This document shows, piece by piece, positions 15,088-24,690 of a DNA stretch of 64,000 bases; position 1 is the first letter of the stretch, and every line of letters starts with the position of its first letter. Source of the DNA: Candidatus Poribacteria bacterium (GTDB taxonomy: Bacteria; Poribacteria; WGA-4E; WGA-3G); assembly GCA_964291315.2 (NCBI GenBank), contig OZ219753.1, positions 608,001 to 672,000 on the forward strand, written 5' to 3'. The translations under genes were made by a program, and so were the position numbers. The notes beneath the pieces are model-generated. The model had not been told where the DNA came from and ran no database searches. It saw nothing but the letters and a program-made list of their open reading frames with translations.

Positions 15088-15684
15088 TTAAGATGAAACT
15101 TTTGTCCAGAGATTATCAGGGAGCATGCTTCGGAGGTTTTCGATCTGTGCGGACATCAACGGGAGTTTTAGTTTCTCAAAAACGTTTTGCCACCGTTCTC
15201 TATGTACTTCCTCCACATAAACGGGTATGAATCCTAAATTTAGATAGGTTTTAATAGCCGGGATACGAAAAACGTCGGTGTCCAGCATAGCACATTTGAA
15301 TCCATGGTCCCGGAGATAGTAGAGGACAGCGAGTGAAACCCATTTTCCGAGTTTATGTCCAGTATGTTCGGCGAGGACACCAACCATATGGACGTACCCA
15401 ATCTCCTTTTCATCAGTAGATTGCCTCCACGCGCAAGCAGTGCCGACCGGGATACCGCTATGCGTTGCGAAGTAGAAACCCTCGGGAAGAAACGCCGTTC
15501 TGCTGGTAACCTGTTCCCGCGTATCTTCTGCAGTGCGTTCCTTACCACCAAACGAATCACTAATGATGCGTGCCCAATGCATTTCATCCCCTTCAAGGTA
15601 AGTGCGCAGACTGTAGCCTGCTGGAAGTTCGAGTTCAGGTAAATGTTTTAAATCAGGGCGTACCATTCTGAGTTGTCGTGACAT
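15088..15684 (-). CDS. GNAT family N-acetyltransferase
   Basis: GYVHMVGVLAEHTGHKLGK (motif A), AIKTYLNLGF (motif B). Confidence 0.88.
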   Translation of the reverse strand: MSRQLRMVRPDLKHLPELELPAGYSLRTYLEGDEMHWARIISDSFGGKERTAEDTREQVTSRTAFLPEGFYFATHSGIPVGTACAWRQSTDEKEIGYVHMVGVLAEHTGHKLGKWVSLAVLYYLRDHGFKCAMLDTDVFRIPAIKTYLNLGFIPVYVEEVHRERWQNVFEKLKLPLMSAQIENLRSMLPDNLWTKVSS

Positions 15685-15930
15685 TTGCTGCTCCTCTTCT
15701 CTCAGGATTCCTGCGTTTGCGATAGGCTCGCCAGTTATGCCATAATTGTATCATACCTTAAGAATTCTTGCAAAAACCTTTACAATATTTCTCAAAAGTG
15801 CTATTATAATAAAAATTTTTTATATAAAGCAATATCTCTGTCAACCATTTGAGGGGCGTTGGATAAATATGGATCCAATCTGGATTGGAGCTCTACTATA
15901 GCGTGTTGCTTAGCCTAGAGAGTAAGAAGC

Positions 15931-16023
15931 TACTATCCGTAATCGTTCAATCCACAGATGGGAATACCGTATCAGTTAGCGGAGGCTGCGAATGTCCACA
16001 TTTCTAACTACAGCAGTGAATGG
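15931..16023 (+). pseudogene. Relic of a FlgD-Ig/T9SS-like C-terminal domain gene
   Basis: Translates YYP*SFNPQMGIPYQLAEAANVHISNYSS, resembling NYPNPFNPETWIPYQLA.....I.IY with an internal stop. It accounts for the spurious N-terminal extension of the aroK ORF. Confidence 0.7.
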
Positions 16024-16074
16024 TCCATTAGTATTGACAAAGAAACATTCACTCACAGTAAAGGCGGGAAACAG

Positions 16075-16620
16075 GTGAAACGATCGTTCGTAAGAAAGCC
16101 TAACATTGTGCTTGTCGGTTTTATGGGAACCGGGAAGACCACTGTTGGCAGACAGCTTGCCTCACAGTTATGGATGTGCTACATAGATACAGACGACATC
16201 ATTGAGCGGGATAGCGGATGTTGCATCAGCAACATCTTTGAGGAAAATGGTGAACCAGCTTTCCGAGATATTGAAAGTGAAGCGGTTCGCAAAACGTCAA
16301 GGCTGTATAATCATGTTATCTCTACAGGTGGCGGTGTCGTCTTGAGAGAAAACAACATAGCAACGCTAAAACACAATGGAATTGTTTTCTGTCTAACGGC
16401 AACACCAGAAGAGATATATCGGCGGGTTCGACATCAGATGCATCGTCCGCTGCTCCAAACGCCCGATGCACTCGCCAAAATTCGGATGATGTTGGCAGAA
16501 CGACAGCGATACTATGCAGAAGCTGATTATAGGGTAGAGACGACGGGGCGTTCGTTTGGAGAAATCACCGGATACATAAGACAAGTCTATGCGAAAAAGA
16601 GTAGGTGGGGAAAACGGTGA
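16075..16620 (+). CDS. aroK: Shikimate kinase
   Basis: LVGFMGTGKTTVG, GEPAFRDIE, STGGGVV, RPLL. Probable GTG start at 16075. Confidence 0.95.
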   Translation: MKRSFVRKPNIVLVGFMGTGKTTVGRQLASQLWMCYIDTDDIIERDSGCCISNIFEENGEPAFRDIESEAVRKTSRLYNHVISTGGGVVLRENNIATLKHNGIVFCLTATPEEIYRRVRHQMHRPLLQTPDALAKIRMMLAERQRYYAEADYRVETTGRSFGEITGYIRQVYAKKSRWGKR

Positions 16621-17702
16621 AAACTTTACGTGTGGAACTCGAGGATAATAGTTATCCGATCATTGTCGGAGCAGATTTCCTCGAACGAGTCGGCGAGCTG
16701 CTGTTGCCCTATATCAAGTCGCATAAGGTGTTTATTGCTTCGGACACCTACGTTCAAAGGCATTATGCACCTATCGTTCAGCGGAGCCTTGAAGCTACTG
16801 GACTTGATGTTTGCACGATTGAAGTGCCCGCTGGAGAAGAGAGCAAATCGTTGGAGCAGTTTTCGCATATATTGGACAGTTTGGTAGATCATCAATTCGA
16901 CCGAGCTTCAACTCTAATTGCCCTCGGGGGCGGTGTCATCGGGGATTTAGCGGGGTTTGCAGCGGCGGTGTACATGCGCGGTATACCTTATATTCAGATT
17001 CCGACCACACTACAAGCACAGGTTGATGCCAGCGTCGGTGGCAAGACAGCAATTAATCATTCAAAAGGCAAAAATCTTATTGGGGCATTCCACCAACCGA
17101 AGTTGGTGCTTATTGATGTGCGGACGCTCGAAAGTCTACCGCAGCGGGACATCCGAGCGGGGCTTATTGAAGTTATTAAAATGGGCGTTATCCGAGACGA
17201 ACCCTTATTTGAGAAGATCGAGGAAAATCTTGATGCCATCTTGAATCTGGAGAGTGCTATACTCAGTGAGATGATTGCCTGCGCGTGCATTAACAAGGCG
17301 GAGATCGTCGCGAAAGATGAGAAAGAGAGTGGGGTGCGGATGGTGCTCAACTATGGTCATACCTTTGGCCACGCGCTTGAAGCACTGACACATTACAACA
17401 GATATCGGCACGGTGAAGCGATCTCTATCGGTATGAACTGCGCGGCACAATTAGCTGTTCATTTGGGGATGTTCTCTGATACCGATTTTCAGCGGCAACA
17501 AGCCCTTCTGAAACGGGCGAACTTGCCAATTGCTTTCCCGCTGGATATCGCTTCTGAGGTACTGTGTAAGGCTCTGTATTTGGACAAGAAAACATTAGGC
17601 GGCAAACTCCGTCTCGTTTTACCAACCCGTATTGGAGAAGTTGTTATACGAAATGATGTTGATGATCAGGACATTATGGAAGCGGTTTCACAATGTTTCT
17701 GA
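16605..17702 (+). CDS. aroB: 3-dehydroquinate synthase
   Basis: GEESKS, GGGVIGDLAGF, PTTL.AQVDASVGGKT, LNYGHTFGHA, HGEA. An alternative start is 16617 (GTGA overlap with aroK). Confidence 0.96.
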   Translation: MGKTVKTLRVELEDNSYPIIVGADFLERVGELLLPYIKSHKVFIASDTYVQRHYAPIVQRSLEATGLDVCTIEVPAGEESKSLEQFSHILDSLVDHQFDRASTLIALGGGVIGDLAGFAAAVYMRGIPYIQIPTTLQAQVDASVGGKTAINHSKGKNLIGAFHQPKLVLIDVRTLESLPQRDIRAGLIEVIKMGVIRDEPLFEKIEENLDAILNLESAILSEMIACACINKAEIVAKDEKESGVRMVLNYGHTFGHALEALTHYNRYRHGEAISIGMNCAAQLAVHLGMFSDTDFQRQQALLKRANLPIAFPLDIASEVLCKALYLDKKTLGGKLRLVLPTRIGEVVIRNDVDDQDIMEAVSQCF

Positions 17703-17758
17703 GCGGCTGCTAGACATTATGAGTTGCCGGCTATCAGATAAACAAGGAAACATAATTT

Positions 17759-18904
17759 ATGAAAAAAAAGATTCAGTCCTTAGTTTTCTGCTGGGTTTTG
17801 TGTCTAAGCGTTAGCATAGGGTTTAGCCAGGTGCTTACGTCTCCTTCAAACGTGACAGCAGTGGATACTCCGAACGATGATGGAAGCAGTATCACTATTA
17901 AGTGGGATGCAGCCCCGGAGGATAGCAGTATCAGCGAATACCAAATTCTGCGCCGGGTTGCGGGAGGCGGTCTCGAAGAGGTTGGGGAGCTGTTGCCTTT
18001 TGAGACAACAACTTATGTTGATTCCACGATCGAGAAAGGAAGGGCGTATGCCTATATTGTGCGAGCAATTAGCGAAACAGAAGCAACAGTAGAATCCGAA
18101 GAGACTGCACCTGTGAAAGGGTCAGGTGAGTGGTTTCACACGGGTAAAATTCCGCTGTTCATTGCGATGTTGGCCTTTTCGGTTGCGATTGTTGTGAGTA
18201 TTTATCAGGCGCGCAGTGGCGCAGATGTTTTCATTCGACGAATTCCAGGGCTGGAAGCCGTAAATGAAGCCATTGGCCGCGCTACGGAAATGGGACGCTC
18301 AATTCTCTATATCCTTGGGCTCGGTGGCGTGAGTGAGGCGGCTACGATCGCGAGTATGAACATTTTAGGACAGGTCGCTCGTCGAACTGCAGATTATGAA
18401 ACTCCTTTGCATGTGCCCTGCCGGGATCCGATTGTGATGAATGTTGTGCGCGAGATGGTAAAAACGGCATATCTCAACGAAGGGCGTCCGGATTCTTATA
18501 ACGAAGACAATATTTTCTTCCTCACTGATAGCCAGTTTGCTTATGCCGCGGGTGTGGACGGCATAATGTTACGCGAGAAACCAGCAGCGATATTTCTACA
18601 AGGGACTTTTTATGCCGAATCACTTATCCTCGCGGAAACTGGGAATTCTATTGGTGCAATCCAGATTGCGGGGACAGATTCCGAGCATCAACTCCCGTTC
18701 TTGATCACAGCGTGTGATTATACTCTGATTGGGGAAGAACTCTATACTGCAAGCGCTTATCTTTCTAGAGAACCCATGCTTCTCGGCAGTATAAGAGGGC
18801 AAGATTGGGGGAAAGCGATTATTTTCGCTGTCATTGTTTCAGGTGTGTTTCTTGAATTAGCGGGTTTTAACTGGATCACAACACTTCTACAGCGGGTAAG
18901 TTAG
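17759..18904 (+). CDS. Fibronectin type III + DUF6754-like membrane protein (subunit A of uncharacterised four-gene module)
   Basis: Signal peptide; FN3 (PSNVTA..ITIKW..EYQILR..YVD..Y.Y.VRA); TM; IRRIPGLEAVNEAIGRATEMG, FYAESLILAE and DYTLIGEELYTASAYLS (DUF6754, from recall); C-terminal TM. Confidence 0.8.
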   Translation: MKKKIQSLVFCWVLCLSVSIGFSQVLTSPSNVTAVDTPNDDGSSITIKWDAAPEDSSISEYQILRRVAGGGLEEVGELLPFETTTYVDSTIEKGRAYAYIVRAISETEATVESEETAPVKGSGEWFHTGKIPLFIAMLAFSVAIVVSIYQARSGADVFIRRIPGLEAVNEAIGRATEMGRSILYILGLGGVSEAATIASMNILGQVARRTADYETPLHVPCRDPIVMNVVREMVKTAYLNEGRPDSYNEDNIFFLTDSQFAYAAGVDGIMLREKPAAIFLQGTFYAESLILAETGNSIGAIQIAGTDSEHQLPFLITACDYTLIGEELYTASAYLSREPMLLGSIRGQDWGKAIIFAVIVSGVFLELAGFNWITTLLQRVS

Positions 18905-18912
18905 GAGGTCTT

Positions 18913-19563
18913 ATGCGCCGACAAGTTCCTTTAATTTTTTGTTTCGTTTTTGGGATTACGATGATCTTCACACACTTCATACCACATTCGGCCGCTCAAA
19001 ACCTTTACCGAGAAGTCACTGAGTGGGCATTGATTATCACTTCTTTCGCACTTATCTTAAGTTCACTCACACTCATCCGAACACACCTCACGCGGATTCA
19101 CCGTCGCGTAGAACATTGGCAATATAGTATTTTTATATTTGTCGGGATTCTGGCGATGGTGGTGATAGGTATCCCCTTTGGACCGCAAAATCCTATCTTT
19201 GAGTGGTTATTCAACAACATTCAAGTTCCTATGGAAGCGACGATGTTCTCACTCCTCGCTTTCTTCGTTGCCTCAGCGGCATACCGTGCTTTTCGAGCGA
19301 GAACGATTGAGGCGAGTTTGCTGTTGATCACGGCTCTCATTGTAATGCTGGGTAACGTTCCAGTAGGGGACCTAATTTGGAACTCACTGTTCTCTTGGTT
19401 GCCCTGGGATAATGGTGCCTCAATCATGCAACAGTGGATTTTGGATAACCCGAATCTATCCGCAAGACGTGGAATTATCCTTGGTATCAGCTTAGGGGTT
19501 ATCTCACAATCCATCCGGATCATCTTGGGAATTGAACGCTCGTATCTTGGTGGAGGAGACTAG
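18913..19563 (+). CDS. Conserved hypothetical polytopic membrane protein (subunit B)
   Basis: About 6 hydrophobic segments; ATMFSLLAFFVASAAYRAFRAR, RGIILG, IRIILGIERSYLGG; AGGAGG RBS, 8-nt gap. Confidence 0.85.
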   Translation: MRRQVPLIFCFVFGITMIFTHFIPHSAAQNLYREVTEWALIITSFALILSSLTLIRTHLTRIHRRVEHWQYSIFIFVGILAMVVIGIPFGPQNPIFEWLFNNIQVPMEATMFSLLAFFVASAAYRAFRARTIEASLLLITALIVMLGNVPVGDLIWNSLFSWLPWDNGASIMQQWILDNPNLSARRGIILGISLGVISQSIRIILGIERSYLGGGD

Positions 19564-19566
19564 CGA

Positions 19567-20382
19567 ATGTTTGAAAGATTGACGAATATAGACCGTCGGA
19601 TCATCTTCATTCTCGTGACTCTGTCGGTTATCGTACCGACACTGGTTCCAGTGAGCATGCCGATCCCGGTATCAGAACCTACACAACAACTCTACGATTA
19701 TATTGAAGCTATACCGGCCGGCGGAACGATCATGCTCGCCTTTGACTATGGCCCCTCTTCCTTAGCAGAGCTGAATCCGATGGCAAGGTCGATCATGAAG
19801 CAGTGTTTTGCTAAAGATATAAGGGTGATTGCTCTCACACTTTATCCGGAGGGCACGACTATGGGTAGCGCATTGATTCAAGAAGTTGTATCGGAAACAG
19901 GTGCGGTTGATGGTGAGGACTATGTTTTCTTGGGTTATCGTTCTGGAAATCAATTAGTTATTCTCGGCATGGGAACGGAAATTGCTAGTATTTTTGACAC
20001 AGATTACAACGGAAAACCGATCTCGGAAATCCCGTTGATGCAAAATGTTATCAACTATGATCAAATTGATCTCCTTGTCGATTTGTCTTCTGGGCAGCTC
20101 ACGGAAACTTGGATTACCTATGCAAACGGACAATTCAATCTACAGATCGCAGCAGGTGTCACCGGCGTTATTATCTCACAGATGTATCCGTATTTGCAAA
20201 CTGGACAATTAATTGGTCTGATTCGAGGGATTGCTGGGGCTGCGGAGTATGAATGCTTAATAGATGCACCGGCAAAAGGGACATTATGGATCAACATTGA
20301 ATCGTTTGTTCACTTACTCATTATAGGTTTAGTCGCTATTGGAAATATTGCGTTCTTCATTCAGCGAGGGCGAGAGGAGTAA
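19567..20382 (+). CDS. Conserved hypothetical protein, TM-soluble domain-TM (subunit C)
   Basis: IDRRIIF N-terminal TM; DYGPSSLAELNPM, DYVFLGYRSG, YPYLQTGQLIGL..GIAGAAEYE; C-terminal TM; 3-nt gap, GGAGG RBS. Confidence 0.85.
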   Translation: MFERLTNIDRRIIFILVTLSVIVPTLVPVSMPIPVSEPTQQLYDYIEAIPAGGTIMLAFDYGPSSLAELNPMARSIMKQCFAKDIRVIALTLYPEGTTMGSALIQEVVSETGAVDGEDYVFLGYRSGNQLVILGMGTEIASIFDTDYNGKPISEIPLMQNVINYDQIDLLVDLSSGQLTETWITYANGQFNLQIAAGVTGVIISQMYPYLQTGQLIGLIRGIAGAAEYECLIDAPAKGTLWINIESFVHLLIIGLVAIGNIAFFIQRGREE

Positions 20383-20386
20383 ATTG

Positions 20387-21037
20387 ATGGAACTTTTTGG
20401 CATCTGGATTGCCGCATTTTTGACCTTCTGCATTTACAGTTTTCTGTACCGAGAGAATCCATTTTACCGGTTTGCGGAACATCTCTTGGTAGGTATATCC
20501 CTCGGATACAGTATTGTGATCTCGATTCATCAAGCATTTATTCCGTTCGCGTGGCAGCCTTTTTATGAAGCGGTAAGAGGCGATTCTCTAGCTGGTCTCA
20601 TAAAATTGATTCCTATATGGATCGGTTTGCTGTATTTTTCAGGGTTGTCGCCGCGGCATACCTGGTTAATTCGGTGGCCTAGTGCGATCCTTATAGGTAT
20701 TGGGTCGGGGCTGGCCATTCCGAATGTGCTGCGTGCTAACATTTTTGAGCAGACCCGGGGAACAGTTGAGCCTTTCGGTGCTATTCATGCTGGAACCCTC
20801 TCTGGCTGGGATATTTTCGACGCTGTTCTGATGGTGATCGGGGTGATTTGTACACTCACTTATTTCTTTTTCTCTGTAGAACACCGGGGTCCTATTAAAT
20901 GGCTTTCAAAGGTAGGTATCGCCTTTCTTATGATAGGGTTCGGTTCAGCATTCGGTAACACGGTCATGGGACGTGTTGCACTTCTCATTCAACGCATCGA
21001 TTTTCTGCTAAACGATTGGCTCGCTACAATTTTTTGA
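20387..21037 (+). CDS. Conserved hypothetical polytopic membrane protein (subunit D)
   Basis: SFLYRENPFYRFAEHLLVG, YFFFSVEH, FLMIGFGSAFGNTVMGR; 5-6 TMs. ATG 20387 follows GAGGAG. Confidence 0.85.
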   Translation: MELFGIWIAAFLTFCIYSFLYRENPFYRFAEHLLVGISLGYSIVISIHQAFIPFAWQPFYEAVRGDSLAGLIKLIPIWIGLLYFSGLSPRHTWLIRWPSAILIGIGSGLAIPNVLRANIFEQTRGTVEPFGAIHAGTLSGWDIFDAVLMVIGVICTLTYFFFSVEHRGPIKWLSKVGIAFLMIGFGSAFGNTVMGRVALLIQRIDFLLNDWLATIF

Positions 21038-21101
21038 TACTGTTATAGGGCAGTCAGGTAGTTCGGGCCCTTTTCCTCATTAGACCTTGGGAGAAAACTG
21101 T

Positions 21102-21944
21102 ATGAAACTTGGATATAGCACTTGGGGTATGCCTACTGTGCCTATAGATACTGCTGTTTCTCATATAGCGGGGCTCGGATACGATGGACTTGAACTCACT
21201 ATTATCCCTCGCTTTACGACCGAACTCAGCACACTTGACGCTGCGCAGAGGAAACGGATCGCGTCTCTTCTGAAAGAGCATGATTTGGCGTTACCCGCAA
21301 TCGCTGCACACTCAAGTCTGTTGGAAACTGATCCAGACAGGCATGCCCAAAATATGTGGAGGCTGAAAGGTGGCGTTGATTTAGCAATAGAACTCGCTCA
21401 AGGTGATGAACCTCCCGCGGTAAATACAACGCCAGGTGGCAAGCCAGAGGAGTGGAACACCCGAAAAGAGCTCCTCGTCGAACGGGTCGGAAAACTCATA
21501 GATTATAGTGCCTCGCGCGGTATCATCATTGCTATGGAACCACACGTCGGCGCAATCATCGATACGCCTACGAAGATACTAGAACTTCTGGCAATCATCA
21601 ATTCTCCATACCTTAAAGTTAACTTCGATATTAGCCATTTTGATATTGTTGGTATGTCCACGGAGGAGACGGTAGCAGCGTTAGCTGCGGTATCGATACA
21701 TACACATGTCAAGGACCAACACGGCACTGCACCTAACTACGAGTTTCTCATACCTGGTGAAGGCCAGTTCGACTATGTAGAATATCTCAAACAGATGCAG
21801 GCACACGGATATGATGGGTTCATCACTGCCGAAATAAGTTTTATGGTGCAAGCGCGTGAAGATTACGATCCGCTCGCTGCTGCGTCTCTTTCTTACGAAA
21901 CATTATCGCGTGCCTTTACGGTGGCTGGAATTGAAAGGGGATAA
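21102..21944 (+). CDS. Sugar phosphate isomerase/epimerase (xylose-isomerase-like TIM barrel)
   Basis: GYDGLEL, MEPH, NFDISHF, HTHVKD, PGEG.FDY, GYDGFITAE. Confidence 0.9.
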   Translation: MKLGYSTWGMPTVPIDTAVSHIAGLGYDGLELTIIPRFTTELSTLDAAQRKRIASLLKEHDLALPAIAAHSSLLETDPDRHAQNMWRLKGGVDLAIELAQGDEPPAVNTTPGGKPEEWNTRKELLVERVGKLIDYSASRGIIIAMEPHVGAIIDTPTKILELLAIINSPYLKVNFDISHFDIVGMSTEETVAALAAVSIHTHVKDQHGTAPNYEFLIPGEGQFDYVEYLKQMQAHGYDGFITAEISFMVQAREDYDPLAAASLSYETLSRAFTVAGIERG

Positions 21945-21946
21945 CT

Positions 21947-23329
21947 ATGCAAACCCCGAATATTCTTCTTCTGATGACCGATCAGCAGCGATGGGACGCG
22001 ATGGGCTGCAGCGGTGACTGGGTGCGAACCCCGAATTTGGATCGTATCGCGAGTGAAGGAATTAGGTTCACCAACTGTGTCACGACATCCCCGGTCTGTA
22101 TTCCGACGCGTCTTAGCTTGGCAACAGGTTTATATCCACATAATACCGGTGTTTGGGATAATATGAATCATCAGATGCCTGCTACAACACCGACCTGGAT
22201 GCAAGCAGTGCGGGCCGCGGGTTACCGGACGAGCCTATTCGGCAAAACGCATCTTCACCCACACAACGGCGATCTGCGAGAACGTGAAGGGTTAATGAAC
22301 GCTTATGGATTGGACGACGTGAACGAGATCGGTGGCCCCCGGGCAAGTGCTACTGTTCTGTCACACATGACATCGGAGTGGGAAGCAAAAGGGGTATGGA
22401 ATGCCTATCGTACCGATTATCGCGAACGGTTCAGAACGAAACCGCACCTTGTGCGTCCGTCTGTCCTCGGACTTGAGGACTATGCTGATGTCTATGTAGG
22501 ACAACAAGCGAAACAATATCTACAGAACTACGGCCGATCAGAACCTTGGTTCTGCTGGGTGAGTTTTGGAGGACCACACGAACCATGGGATACCCCGGAA
22601 CCCTATGCTAATATGTACGATCCGGAAGAGATGCCATCTGCTATTCTACGCCCACCTACAGAAGAACGTCCACATGGACACTTAGATAGACTGATGGATC
22701 GGGTGAAACCGACGTTTGAACCCGGCGAGGTTGGGAAACTGCGTGCCAATTATGCGGGGAATGTGACGCTCATTGATGCACAGGTTGGCGACATTCTCGA
22801 TGCAATTGAGGCTCGCGGTGAACTTGAGAACACAATCATCGTTCATACCTCCGACCACGGTGAAATGAACGGAGATTATGGACTTATCTACAAAAGTAAC
22901 TTCCTCAACGGCGCAGTCAGGATACCGTTACTTGTTCGAACACCGGATAAATCGAATGCTGGAGCGGTCTGTGAGAATCTAGTCGAATGGATAGACATTG
23001 GTCCAACACTCGTTGAAATGGCAGATGGTGAATTGCAACACCCTCAGTTTGGCAAGTCGTTGTGCCCGGTGTTAGCAGAACCGCAATCTGTGCACCGAGA
23101 TTTCGCAATATCTGAAATACATGGAGAGATTATGTTGTTAAATCGAGAATGGAAGGCTGCTATCAACTCGGATGGCACGGTTTACCTTCTCTTTAATGTA
23201 CAAAACGACTCGAACGAAACAGATAACCTCGCCGGTAGACAGGAAGTTGCAGATGTAGAAACAGCCTTGCGCCTGCAGATTTTAGAGAGAATCGTGCAGA
23301 CGCAACTGCAAAAGCCGTTTCGCGAATGA
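21947..23329 (+). CDS. Formylglycine-dependent sulfatase (choline-sulfatase-like)
   Basis: PNILLLMTDQQR, CIPTR.S..TG (CxPxR), GKTH, PHEP, SDHGE. Confidence 0.93.
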   Translation: MQTPNILLLMTDQQRWDAMGCSGDWVRTPNLDRIASEGIRFTNCVTTSPVCIPTRLSLATGLYPHNTGVWDNMNHQMPATTPTWMQAVRAAGYRTSLFGKTHLHPHNGDLREREGLMNAYGLDDVNEIGGPRASATVLSHMTSEWEAKGVWNAYRTDYRERFRTKPHLVRPSVLGLEDYADVYVGQQAKQYLQNYGRSEPWFCWVSFGGPHEPWDTPEPYANMYDPEEMPSAILRPPTEERPHGHLDRLMDRVKPTFEPGEVGKLRANYAGNVTLIDAQVGDILDAIEARGELENTIIVHTSDHGEMNGDYGLIYKSNFLNGAVRIPLLVRTPDKSNAGAVCENLVEWIDIGPTLVEMADGELQHPQFGKSLCPVLAEPQSVHRDFAISEIHGEIMLLNREWKAAINSDGTVYLLFNVQNDSNETDNLAGRQEVADVETALRLQILERIVQTQLQKPFRE

Positions 23330-23479
23330 TTAGGTTATGGCCATCCGCCATCCCTTTATTCCTTGCAGATGAGTGAATACTCGTTCTGTACCTCGAAAGT
23401 GGAAATCACCATTCATGCCGCTTTTGTATGCTTTCTTCCAACCGGCAGCAAAATACGATTATACAACGTAATTACGGCT

Positions 23480-24690
23480 CTATAGATCGATGAAAGCGGA
23501 TATTTTCGTCCATAATGGTGTTGATAACAGCACCTTTGATTGCATGCCGGTTTTCATCAAAATATAACAGTGTTGTTGCCCTCTGTAGTTTTGTGTCACC
23601 TGAATTTGGTCGCAAATTGACACGGGGGTCAGTTGAGATGTGCGTTTCATCGCTGCAATGAGAATGTTAACGGCATCATATCCTAGTGCTGCTGGGCCAT
23701 CCGGGGGCATACCAAACCGATCAGTATAGGCATTGATAAATAGCCGTGCTCTTTCATCTAACTGTTCCGCTGTTCCATCTGGTGAGAAATGATTCACAAA
23801 TAAGCTCCCGTTAACCGCCTCTCCAGCGATGTCAGCAAGATCGGGTCTGTCCCATCCATCACCCCGAGGAATGTTGCGGTGATGCCGATATGAGTGTCTT
23901 TCGCTTGCTTGACAGTAAGTGGAAATTCAGGACCCAAGCCGGGTAAAAATATAACATCCACAGGCGGATCCACGGCAGCAATCCCGGTGAGTTGCTCGGT
24001 ATAGTCTGTCGTTCCTGCTTCGTAAAGTTGGCGAATTGCAACTGTACCGCTGCAGTAAAGGCTTCCACAAAAACCTCTGTCAATCCTTGGGAATAGCTAC
24101 TATTTATTTCTGTTAGCGTAGCGGCAGTTGCTGCGTTCAACTCCTGAATAGCGAAATTTGCCATTATGTTTGCCTGATAAGGGTCAGTATATGCCGTCAT
24201 GAACACGAAATCGCTGTTTTCTGGGACCCGCGGATTTGTCGGGTAGGTCGTTAGCAGGGGTATTTCATGCTCGCGGATGACTTTACTAACTTCCATTGCG
24301 ATTGTAGAATAGTCTGGACCAACAATTGCTGATACCCCAAGATCGATTAATTCTTCTGCATGTTGAACGCTGTAGGCGGATATTTTTTGTCGTCTCGGAC
24401 GAGAAGGTATATTGGTGCCCTTTTAATTCCTCCACCCTCATTTGCGAGAGCAACTGCTAATTCCGCACCATTCCGGGTCGTGCCAGGGTCAGGCGGGCTA
24501 TAAATGAACCCGATTCTGATACATGGCATACTGGCAGGTTTTTCTAAATCGGTGGAGGTAACACCTGGTTGAAGGCGATCACGTCCGACTAAACAAAAAA
24601 GGGCTATGGTGAAAAACAGGGTAAGCTTCTGCCAATAAAGATAGGTTTGAGAGTCGTTCCATTCTGTTTAAACACAAAAAATCACCCTCC
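23480..24690 (-). pseudogene. Frameshifted LivJ-type (branched-chain amino acid) ABC substrate-binding lipoprotein
   Basis: Three or more consecutive fragments in different frames (IRIGFIY..NGAELAV..AN; TNPRV..FVF..D..QA; NHFSPD..ALGYDAV). The lipobox reads LVGR rather than LVGC, and there is an early TAA. Confidence 0.8.

Follow-up and report, generated by a model that had tools for sequence, protein, structure and literature searches.

In energy-coupling factor (ECF) importers, and in ATP-binding cassette (ABC) importers that share an ATPase, one energising module per genome stands beside one to several diverged membrane modules. The core of the Rnf and Na+-NQR complexes consists, in outline, of two small subunits with six transmembrane (TM) segments each, a periplasmic subunit anchored by a TM segment, and a cytoplasmic subunit that contains a barrel-sandwich hybrid domain. 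A third group of relevant systems is built around actin-fold ATPases: reactivases of this superfamily (GlmL/MutL, DdrAB, EutA) serve coenzyme-B12 enzymes, and PilM- or GspL-type scaffolds likewise use an actin-fold protein at the membrane. Here we describe a four-gene membrane unit, A-B-C-D, in a window of 64,000 nucleotides (the whole stretch of DNA that was analysed, G000:C4:608001-672000, C4 being the contig label) within the 4.4-Mb genome of a sponge-associated Candidatus Poribacteria bacterium. The unit is not self-contained, being linked in the genomes to the genes of three further proteins, S, M and X, of which M is a MutL-type ATPase. As a system it lies outside every described class that we tested, although A is already catalogued as a sequence family (PF20539). 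Its parts, in positions of the window, are the following:

17759..18904, + strand: subunit A, 381 residues; signal-like segment, exported domain resembling fibronectin type III (FN3), TM segment, predicted cytoplasmic Rossmann-like DUF6754 domain, TM segment
18125..18886, + strand: DUF6754 domain of A (residues 123-376), the most conserved portion of the unit
18913..19563, + strand: subunit B, 216 residues; about 6 TM segments, the fourth followed by a conserved basic motif; N-terminus predicted inside
19567..20382, + strand: subunit C, 271 residues; TM segment, Rossmann-like domain predicted outside the cytoplasm, TM segment, basic tails at both ends
20387..21037, + strand: subunit D, 216 residues from its ATG; 5-6 TM segments

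Reading of the DNA showed the four genes to be co-oriented, with gaps of 8 nucleotides between A and B, 3 between B and C and 4 between C and D. Purine-rich, GGAGG-like sites lie directly upstream of the starts of B (AGGAGG), C (GGAGGAG) and D (GAGGAG), and AAGGAA lies 9 nucleotides before the start of A. For D, the list of open reading frames (ORFs) gives a TTG start at 20339 (232 residues, overlapping C); its homologs begin at the ATG at 20387, which yields 216 residues. The tight spacing and good ribosome-binding sites that a first-pass annotation of this DNA had reported are therefore borne out, as is its description of B and D as proteins of about 216 residues with 5-6 TM segments, since each has 216 residues and a Kyte-Doolittle hydropathy scan found 6 hydrophobic segments in B and, in D, 5 over the threshold and a weaker sixth at about 96-114. 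The same scan placed a signal-like segment at residues 8-26 of A and TM segments at 131-149 and 353-371, with the DUF6754 domain between them at 150-352, and TM segments at 12-30 and 247-265 of C, flanking a domain of 216 residues (31-246).

Subunit A is a full-length, high-scoring member of the Pfam family DUF6754 (PF20539; residues 123-376 on profile positions 3-256 of 257, E 1.7e-119, 398.1 bits with the cut-off at 27). This family is catalogued without an assigned function and covers A alone; its members appear in NCBI records as "DUF6754 domain-containing protein" or "fibronectin type III domain-containing protein", whereas no family exists for B, C, D, X or S. DUF6754 was found in 30 of 31 relatives and in 172 of the 176 genomes of the phylum (132/133 among high-quality genomes). 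Twenty-one loci of the phylum, second copies included, were fetched and A, B, C and D were sought in them by tblastn; all four were present in order at 19, the remaining two being L019, which lies at a contig end, and L027, a lone A gene. One genome was then scanned for each GTDB species, which gave at least 614 confirmed stretches; from these, 79 loci were kept and searched with hidden Markov models of the four proteins. All four genes were found at 63 of these loci, A-B-C at 3, A-B at 9 and A alone at 4; in 13 of the 16 incomplete loci the sequence runs out at, or shortly beyond, the last unit gene detected, and the other three are lone A genes (L051, L065, L096). The two sets make up 100 loci, with at least 3 duplicates among them (L041 = L011, L047 = L015, L051 = L027). 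Because the four genes recur together at 19/21 and 63/79 loci, their arrangement is not due to chance, and the genome survey that had been proposed in the first-pass annotation thus found the unit to co-occur both within the phylum and more widely. A-B-C-D is very probably a real, conserved complex.

The record labels of the carriers include Poribacteria, WOR-3, Stahlbacteria, Edwardsbacteria, Coatesbacteria, Zixibacteria, Eisenbacteria, Latescibacterota, Ignavibacteria and others, with several of these labels conflicting with the genome grouping used here, and very small genomes (1.4-2 Mb) are among them. In Poribacteria the unit is near-universal and single-copy. In an Ignavibacteria-like phylum (G232-G325) all 101 sampled genomes carry DUF6754, with 2-6 matches each; these often form tandem arrays of whole units, about 3.5 kb apart and adjoining the single MutL-like gene, as at G268:C6:54438-65947. 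The phyla of loci L054 and L094, with carriers numbering 101/101 and 61/61, proved to be one and the same. The phylum of L102 comprises 12 genomes, 11 of them with a DUF6754 match at E <= 0.001 and 10 with one over the cut-off.

All ORFs of the 100 loci were clustered for recurrent neighbours. Just three neighbours recur in more than one lineage, M (about 600 residues, 9 loci), X (about 375 residues, 7 loci) and S (106-140 residues, 6 loci), and at one locus from the same class as the window's genome (L017) they form the row S-M-X-A-B-C-D. M matches the Pfam family MutL (PF13941, E 1e-129), X gave only sub-threshold matches to RnfC_N and Biotin_lipoyl, and S matched nothing. In the window's genome M is encoded at C4:1934233-1936053, 1.3 Mb from the unit and between genes for a TIM-barrel protein and a secreted protein; it has 606 residues, is 76% identical to the M of L017 and matches PF13941 over positions 1-450 of 450 (C4:1934263-1935693, E 2.1e-128, 428.9 bits against a cut-off of 27). 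Its translation keeps the three nucleotide motifs DCGSTTTK, DIGGATTD and GSGG, which we take to be the phosphate and adenosine motifs of the ASKHA type. X (C4:340521-341651, 376 residues) is 63% identical to that of L017, and S (about 100 residues) lies at C4:2242483-2242776. S, M and X are thus dispersed along the unit's own contig in the window's genome and stand in one row with A-B-C-D in other lineages; the scattering of these partner genes is the sole peculiarity of the window's copy, which is otherwise an ordinary single copy.

The link between unit and trio extends well beyond the loci at which the genes adjoin. Among 45 carrier genomes of other phyla, M was found in 43 and X in 43 (E <= 1e-10) and S in 41 (E <= 1e-5), each usually once, and by the listed coordinates S lies just upstream and X just downstream of M in most of the 45. 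M is present in 31/31 relatives of the window's genome, and Poribacteria with two units still have one M. In 61 Ignavibacteria-like genomes with 2-6 DUF6754 matches each, M was found in all 61, with exactly one match in 58; the three exceptions are an extra long paralog, a sub-threshold match and a gene divided between two contigs. By hand count, at least 31 of these 61 genomes have M within 5 kb of a DUF6754 match. Neither PF20539 nor PF13941 scored over its cut-off in 14 control genomes. X itself is highly conserved, with 55-63% identity across phyla, a mean column identity of 69% and barrel-sandwich-like parts, and in each of two other genomes a single ORF joins an X-like region to a MutL domain: proteins of 854 residues (L113:740-3304, - strand) and 940 residues (L114:916-3738, - strand), paralogs that occur besides separate M and X genes. 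Their MutL domains match at E 1.8e-102 and 3.3e-106, and their X-like regions match the X of the window's genome at BLASTP E 9e-17 and 8e-31. The first-pass annotation had seen no ATPase and had suggested a secondary transporter, a view that is undercut by a MutL-type ATPase in 43/45, 61/61 and 31/31 carriers, often adjoining the unit. Taken together, the carriers and the adjacency of the genes point to an association of unit and trio, and a working partnership between A-B-C-D and the trio of M is likely.

How do these parts compare with the described systems? The unit and trio resemble ECF and shared-ATPase ABC importers in pairing what may be a single energising module per genome with one to several diverged membrane modules, but the linked ATPase is of the actin fold (PF13941) rather than a P-loop ABC protein, and four subunits make up the membrane module, whose Rossmann-like domains are predicted to lie on both faces of the membrane. 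No Pfam or NCBIfam match of A-D was to an ABC ATPase, ABC permease, EcfT or S-component family. M is like the GlmL/MutL reactivases in spanning the whole PF13941 profile and in being paired with a second protein, X, to which it is fused in some genomes; unlike them, it is about 150 residues longer than the profile and is tied to genes for membrane proteins. No mutase genes stand beside M at the loci seen, a genome-wide search for mutases not having been made. The likeness to the Rnf/Na+-NQR core is one of outline, and stand-alone X-like proteins score 19.9-21.2 bits, below the cut-off, against the RnfC_N/NQRA_N barrel-sandwich families, with 28.3 bits in a fused form; unlike that core, the unit shows no conserved cysteine pairs or cofactor motifs, and the Rnf-Nqr (RnfA/E-NqrD/E) and FMN_bind families are absent from 67 B, 61 D and 67 C homologs even at E <= 1. 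Set beside the RCK/KTN (TrkA-N) regulatory domains of K+ channels and transporters, which are Rossmann folds with a glycine-rich nucleotide loop after strand 1, the soluble domains may differ: the lists of structural matches are flat and mixed, a single glycine after strand 1 is invariant, and nucleotide sensing by the domain of C is unlikely since this domain is predicted to lie outside the cell. Full-text literature searches returned no paper that mentions DUF6754, PF20539 or PF13941, and in searches on Poribacteria, fibronectin type III and membrane no paper among those listed concerned the A-B-C-D unit as judged by titles and the opening lines of abstracts.

The best overall reading, which we offer tentatively, is an ATP-driven transmembrane machine with A-B-C-D as its inner-membrane half and S-M-X as its cytoplasmic half. 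A, B, C and D would form one inner-membrane complex, their mutual binding being suggested by the conservation of the genes, and S, M and X would be a single-copy cytoplasmic trio, the other half of the machine. ATP turnover by M, with X and S, would be relayed to the conserved cytoplasmic Rossmann-like domain of A, on which M presumably docks; B and D would be the membrane path or the moving part, and the outward-facing domain of C and the variable exported domain of A would deal with cargo outside. The work done may be transport across the cytoplasmic membrane, most likely uptake, with each A-B-C-D copy serving as a specificity module and the trio as a shared energiser. Primary-active transport fits best because there is one energiser with 1-6 diverged modules, two polytopic subunits, an outward alpha/beta domain and a variable exported domain, and such variability would be the expected behaviour of a part specific to a cargo or partner. 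We regard transport as a possible job of the system without calling it a probable one. A structure prediction of the complex of A (residues 121-381), B, C and D, with C as partner, gave scores of 0.77, 0.80 and 0.80 against 0.00 and 0.00 in controls with the partner replaced, but a control with the first chain replaced also scored 0.77, so that the prediction gives no verdict on binding.

Several observations weigh against an ATP-driven transport machine. B and D resemble no known transporter family in the homolog scans, and large FN3 or propeller ectodomains are unusual for importers of small molecules and fit envelope or signalling machines equally well. Every sampled lineage carries the unit and M almost universally, the non-carriers being the 14 control genomes only; a lineage in which the unit is patchily present was sought among other phyla and none was found, so that co-occurrence is counted against no balanced negative set. 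The co-occurrence counts also overstate independence, because the carrier genomes are kin, and co-regulation cannot be argued from the window's genome, because the unit, S, M and X are dispersed there. Finally, the few named members of PF13941 are linked to coenzyme-B12 mutases, not to transport.

The most ambitious form of this proposal would be a new class of primary-active membrane machine, in which one to several interchangeable A-B-C-D modules with Rossmann-like domains on both faces share one actin-fold ATPase, M, together with X and S in place of a P-loop ATPase, across many mostly uncultured bacterial phyla; we consider it rather unlikely in this full form. If it were true, a seven-protein membrane machine present in nearly every genome of several phyla would have escaped study, with five of its seven proteins (B, C, D, S and X) lacking a protein family. 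A membrane complex with an actin-fold ATPase as its motor would represent a new energising principle next to those of the ABC, P-type, V/F-type and AAA+ systems, and a role would be assigned to a universally kept, strongly conserved gene set in Poribacteria and other uncultured groups. What is gained at present is a list of seven defined components, A-D together with S, M and X.

The alternative that survives best, although we hold it to be unlikely, is a force-transmitting machine of the envelope, comparable to FtsEX or to PilM-PilN-PilO scaffolds, in which ATP-driven movements of M, X and S would pass via A, B and D to outward domains; these would act on extracytoplasmic partners (for example hydrolases, surface polymers or enzymes of the wall) by switching or positioning them. 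The exported part of A lends this alternative some weight. It ranges from none (forms of 292-293 residues, L016 and L024) through one FN3 domain and FN3 repeats to a PQQ-like propeller, and FN3 domains and propellers are protein- or glycan-binding scaffolds; 805 A proteins are long forms of 668-2000 residues, many of them with FN3 or PQQ-like propeller domains, with most of the added length unannotated. One lone A from a Zixibacteria-labelled genome (L096:5902-8199) carries a C-terminal Peptidase_S49 (SppA/NfeD-like) domain (E 9.1e-44) after its second TM segment, which would place it outside the cytoplasm; a complete A-B-C-D locus (L074) is present in that genome too. The near-universal, single-copy presence of the unit in Poribacteria is moreover housekeeping-like, and, because the neighbouring genes differ between lineages, no metabolic pathway is attached to the unit. 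Set against this, the labels of the carriers cover lineages with very different kinds of envelope, the presence of 2-6 diverged copies in genomes with a single M is more suggestive of specificity modules, and no conserved extracytoplasmic enzyme accompanies the unit in the 100 loci.

Odd copies were seen in several genomes. Lone A paralogs with unrelated downstream genes occur at L027:2942-4105 (= L051) and at L065:5962-7038, and the genome of the former (G031) also holds a complete unit (L026). Some Poribacteria have inserts of about 100-150 residues, in the loop between the third and fourth TM segments of B (L020, L021, L029, L030) and in the central loop of D (L021, L023), that in the D of L023 resembling extra TM segments. 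The B gene of L022 (L022:8886-9536) has one internal stop as translated; the sequence may contain an error, the gene may be broken, or the start may have been wrongly chosen.

A second alternative, quite improbable in our estimate, is a membrane-bound enzyme with a chaperone-like ATPase, in which the cytoplasmic domain of A would be catalytic or would bind a cofactor and M with X would maintain or reload it, as reactivases do. The conservation of the domain of A and the family of M, the latter a full-length PF13941 member, speak for it. The DUF6754 domain of A is far more conserved than B, C or D, with 20 columns that do not vary among 78 sequences of many phyla and 50-60% identity between phyla; Arg, Glu, Asp and Gly are among the invariant positions, and a Cys-Asp pair is nearly invariant. 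Yet no cofactor or active-site motif was recognisable and the fold matches are generic; an enzyme has no evident need for an outward-facing C and two polytopic subunits in strict order, nor does the presence of several membrane copies per one M fit it readily.

B, C and D had zero matches to Pfam or NCBIfam families in profile scans, and no consistent family appeared at E <= 1 when 67 B, 67 C and 61 D homologs were scanned. The match of residues 28-115 of A to fn3 (PF00041) reaches 20.8 bits (E 4.7e-4), under the curated cut-off of 25; the N-terminal columns of the A homolog profile match titin and fibronectin FN3 structures with E down to 9e-29, but these columns stem from other rows of the alignment. 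Compared with the sequences of solved structures, the A profile matched FN3 domains only, the C profile reached a best E of 0.72, and X and M had zero matches; a search of the ESM Atlas with B and X yielded nothing but clusters that had no name or a weak one. The first-pass annotation was thus right that none of the four genes has a known function: the unit maps to no characterised complex, B, C and D are without a family, and the sequence searches revealed no solved relative of the unit. The families are large, A numbering at least 8000 proteins at E <= 0.001 and the C profile finding 5360 representatives of clusters at 50% identity with E <= 0.001, of which 4151 reach E <= 1e-10, with fused forms of C limited to 2 weak long proteins.

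The sidedness of the subunits was predicted, not measured, by counting lysine plus arginine (K+R) in the aligned flanks of 61-78 homologs per subunit under the positive-inside rule. For A (78 sequences) the counts are 4.3 after the first TM segment and 1.6 before it, and 2.2 before the second and 0.9 after it, which places the domain inside. For C (67 sequences) they are 3.1 in the 11-residue N-terminal tail and 3.3-3.9 in the short C-terminal tail, against 1.4 and 2.1 in the 15-residue flanks on the side of the domain, which places the tails inside and the domain outside. The soluble domains of A and C therefore probably face opposite sides of the membrane, and on this charge-based prediction the first-pass annotation, which had put the domain of A in the cytoplasm and that of C in the periplasm, is supported. 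In B, the K+R count is high in loops 2 and 4 (4.6 and 3.2) and low in loops 1 and 3 (1.0 and 0.9), so that its N-terminus reads as inside; in D the loop charges are nearly even, with little difference between the sides.

From this opposite orientation, together with short motif echoes, the first-pass annotation had inferred a pseudo-symmetric A/B + C/D complex with related domains on opposite faces of the membrane. AlphaFold2 models of A (residues 121-381; alignment of 78 sequences) and C (alignment of 67 sequences), with predicted local distance difference test (pLDDT) scores of 92.8 and 94.4, are alike: each has a six-stranded alpha/beta domain (a helix followed by six strand-helix units) between two long TM helices. 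In these models both soluble domains are six-stranded and Rossmann-like with the same order of elements. A Foldseek search of the PDB gave zero matches at E <= 0.001 for A and, for C, three weak matches to halves of GT-B folds (template-modelling scores 0.2-0.4). The lists of structural matches are flat and generically Rossmann-like, mixed with short-chain dehydrogenases/reductases, sirtuins and GT-B halves, and 10 entries are common to the top 50 of both subunits (1kjn_B, 4gx0_A, 3llv_A, 1id1_B, 5but_A, 4i5i_A, 4o9u_B, 6ij7_A, 1psw_A and 4xso_B). The two domains thus belong to the same broad fold class, but this fold is among the commonest and is therefore weak evidence of kinship.

Tests of relatedness by sequence and profile gave no signal. 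A and C were compared at BLASTP E 4.6 and at hhalign probabilities of 0.43% (alignments of 19-21 sequences) and 0.65% (61-78 sequences), and B and D at BLASTP E 0.19 and at 0.35% and 1.30% with the same two depths of alignment. With the soluble domains of A and C alone, hhalign produced a 155-column alignment with a probability of 0.68% in which strands 1-3 pair and the register then slips by one strand. The kinship claimed for A with C and for B with D is thus undetectable by BLASTP and by profile-profile comparison, and a pseudo-symmetric duplication is unproven. The short motif echoes between A and C that had been quoted for it do exist and, by our own reading of the models, lie on equivalent elements (strand 3, strand 5, and helix 5 with strand 6), which is suggestive, but they carry no statistical weight; the structural comparison upheld a shared fold class, element order and 10 common matches. 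Very old duplicates could evade such tests, and common descent of A and C, whose architecture and modelled fold class are the same, is possible.

The model of a self-contained, ATPase-free secondary transporter or channel, with A/B and C/D as ancient duplicates in opposite orientation about a pseudo-two-fold axis, is accordingly very improbable, for although the common layout, secondary-structure order and structural matches of A and C, their opposite predicted sidedness, the equivalent positions of the echoes, and an inside N-terminus of B with a weak charge pattern in D that is compatible with the opposite sense all suit it, it is opposed by the hhalign probabilities (0.4-0.7% for A/C and 0.35-1.3% for B/D), the register shift after strand 3, the commonness of the fold and the strong genomic link to the ATPase trio.

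The genes on either side of the unit in the window are these:

15958-16620, + strand: aroK-like (shikimate-kinase-like) gene, upstream of A, read from its translation
16605-17702, + strand: aroB-like (3-dehydroquinate-synthase-like) gene, upstream of A, read from its translation
21087-21944: xylose-isomerase-like TIM-barrel gene, downstream of D
21947-23329: sulfatase gene, downstream of the TIM-barrel gene

The aroK-like and aroB-like genes overlap by 16 nucleotides and end 56 nucleotides before A, and this neighbourhood is found at 13 of the 100 loci, all of them from Poribacteria. A scan of 15600-23600 for promoter and terminator consensus sequences gave counts within the shuffled expectation, and the interval between aroB and A was without a clear signal. 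The neighbours confined to Poribacteria are the aroK-like gene (13 loci), the TIM-barrel gene (11), the sulfatase gene (10), a PMT-like gene (10) and a GNAT gene (8), with none at the 63 loci of L048-L110. The hint of a sugar or sulfated substrate, which the first-pass annotation had drawn from the downstream TIM-barrel and sulfatase genes, accordingly fails, and we rejected these two genes as pointers to a substrate because they adjoin the unit only in Poribacteria. Further downstream, at 23480-24296 on the - strand, two adjacent short ORFs (105 and 145 residues) are, on a reading of their translations, possibly pieces of one broken gene for a periplasmic protein of the solute-binding type.

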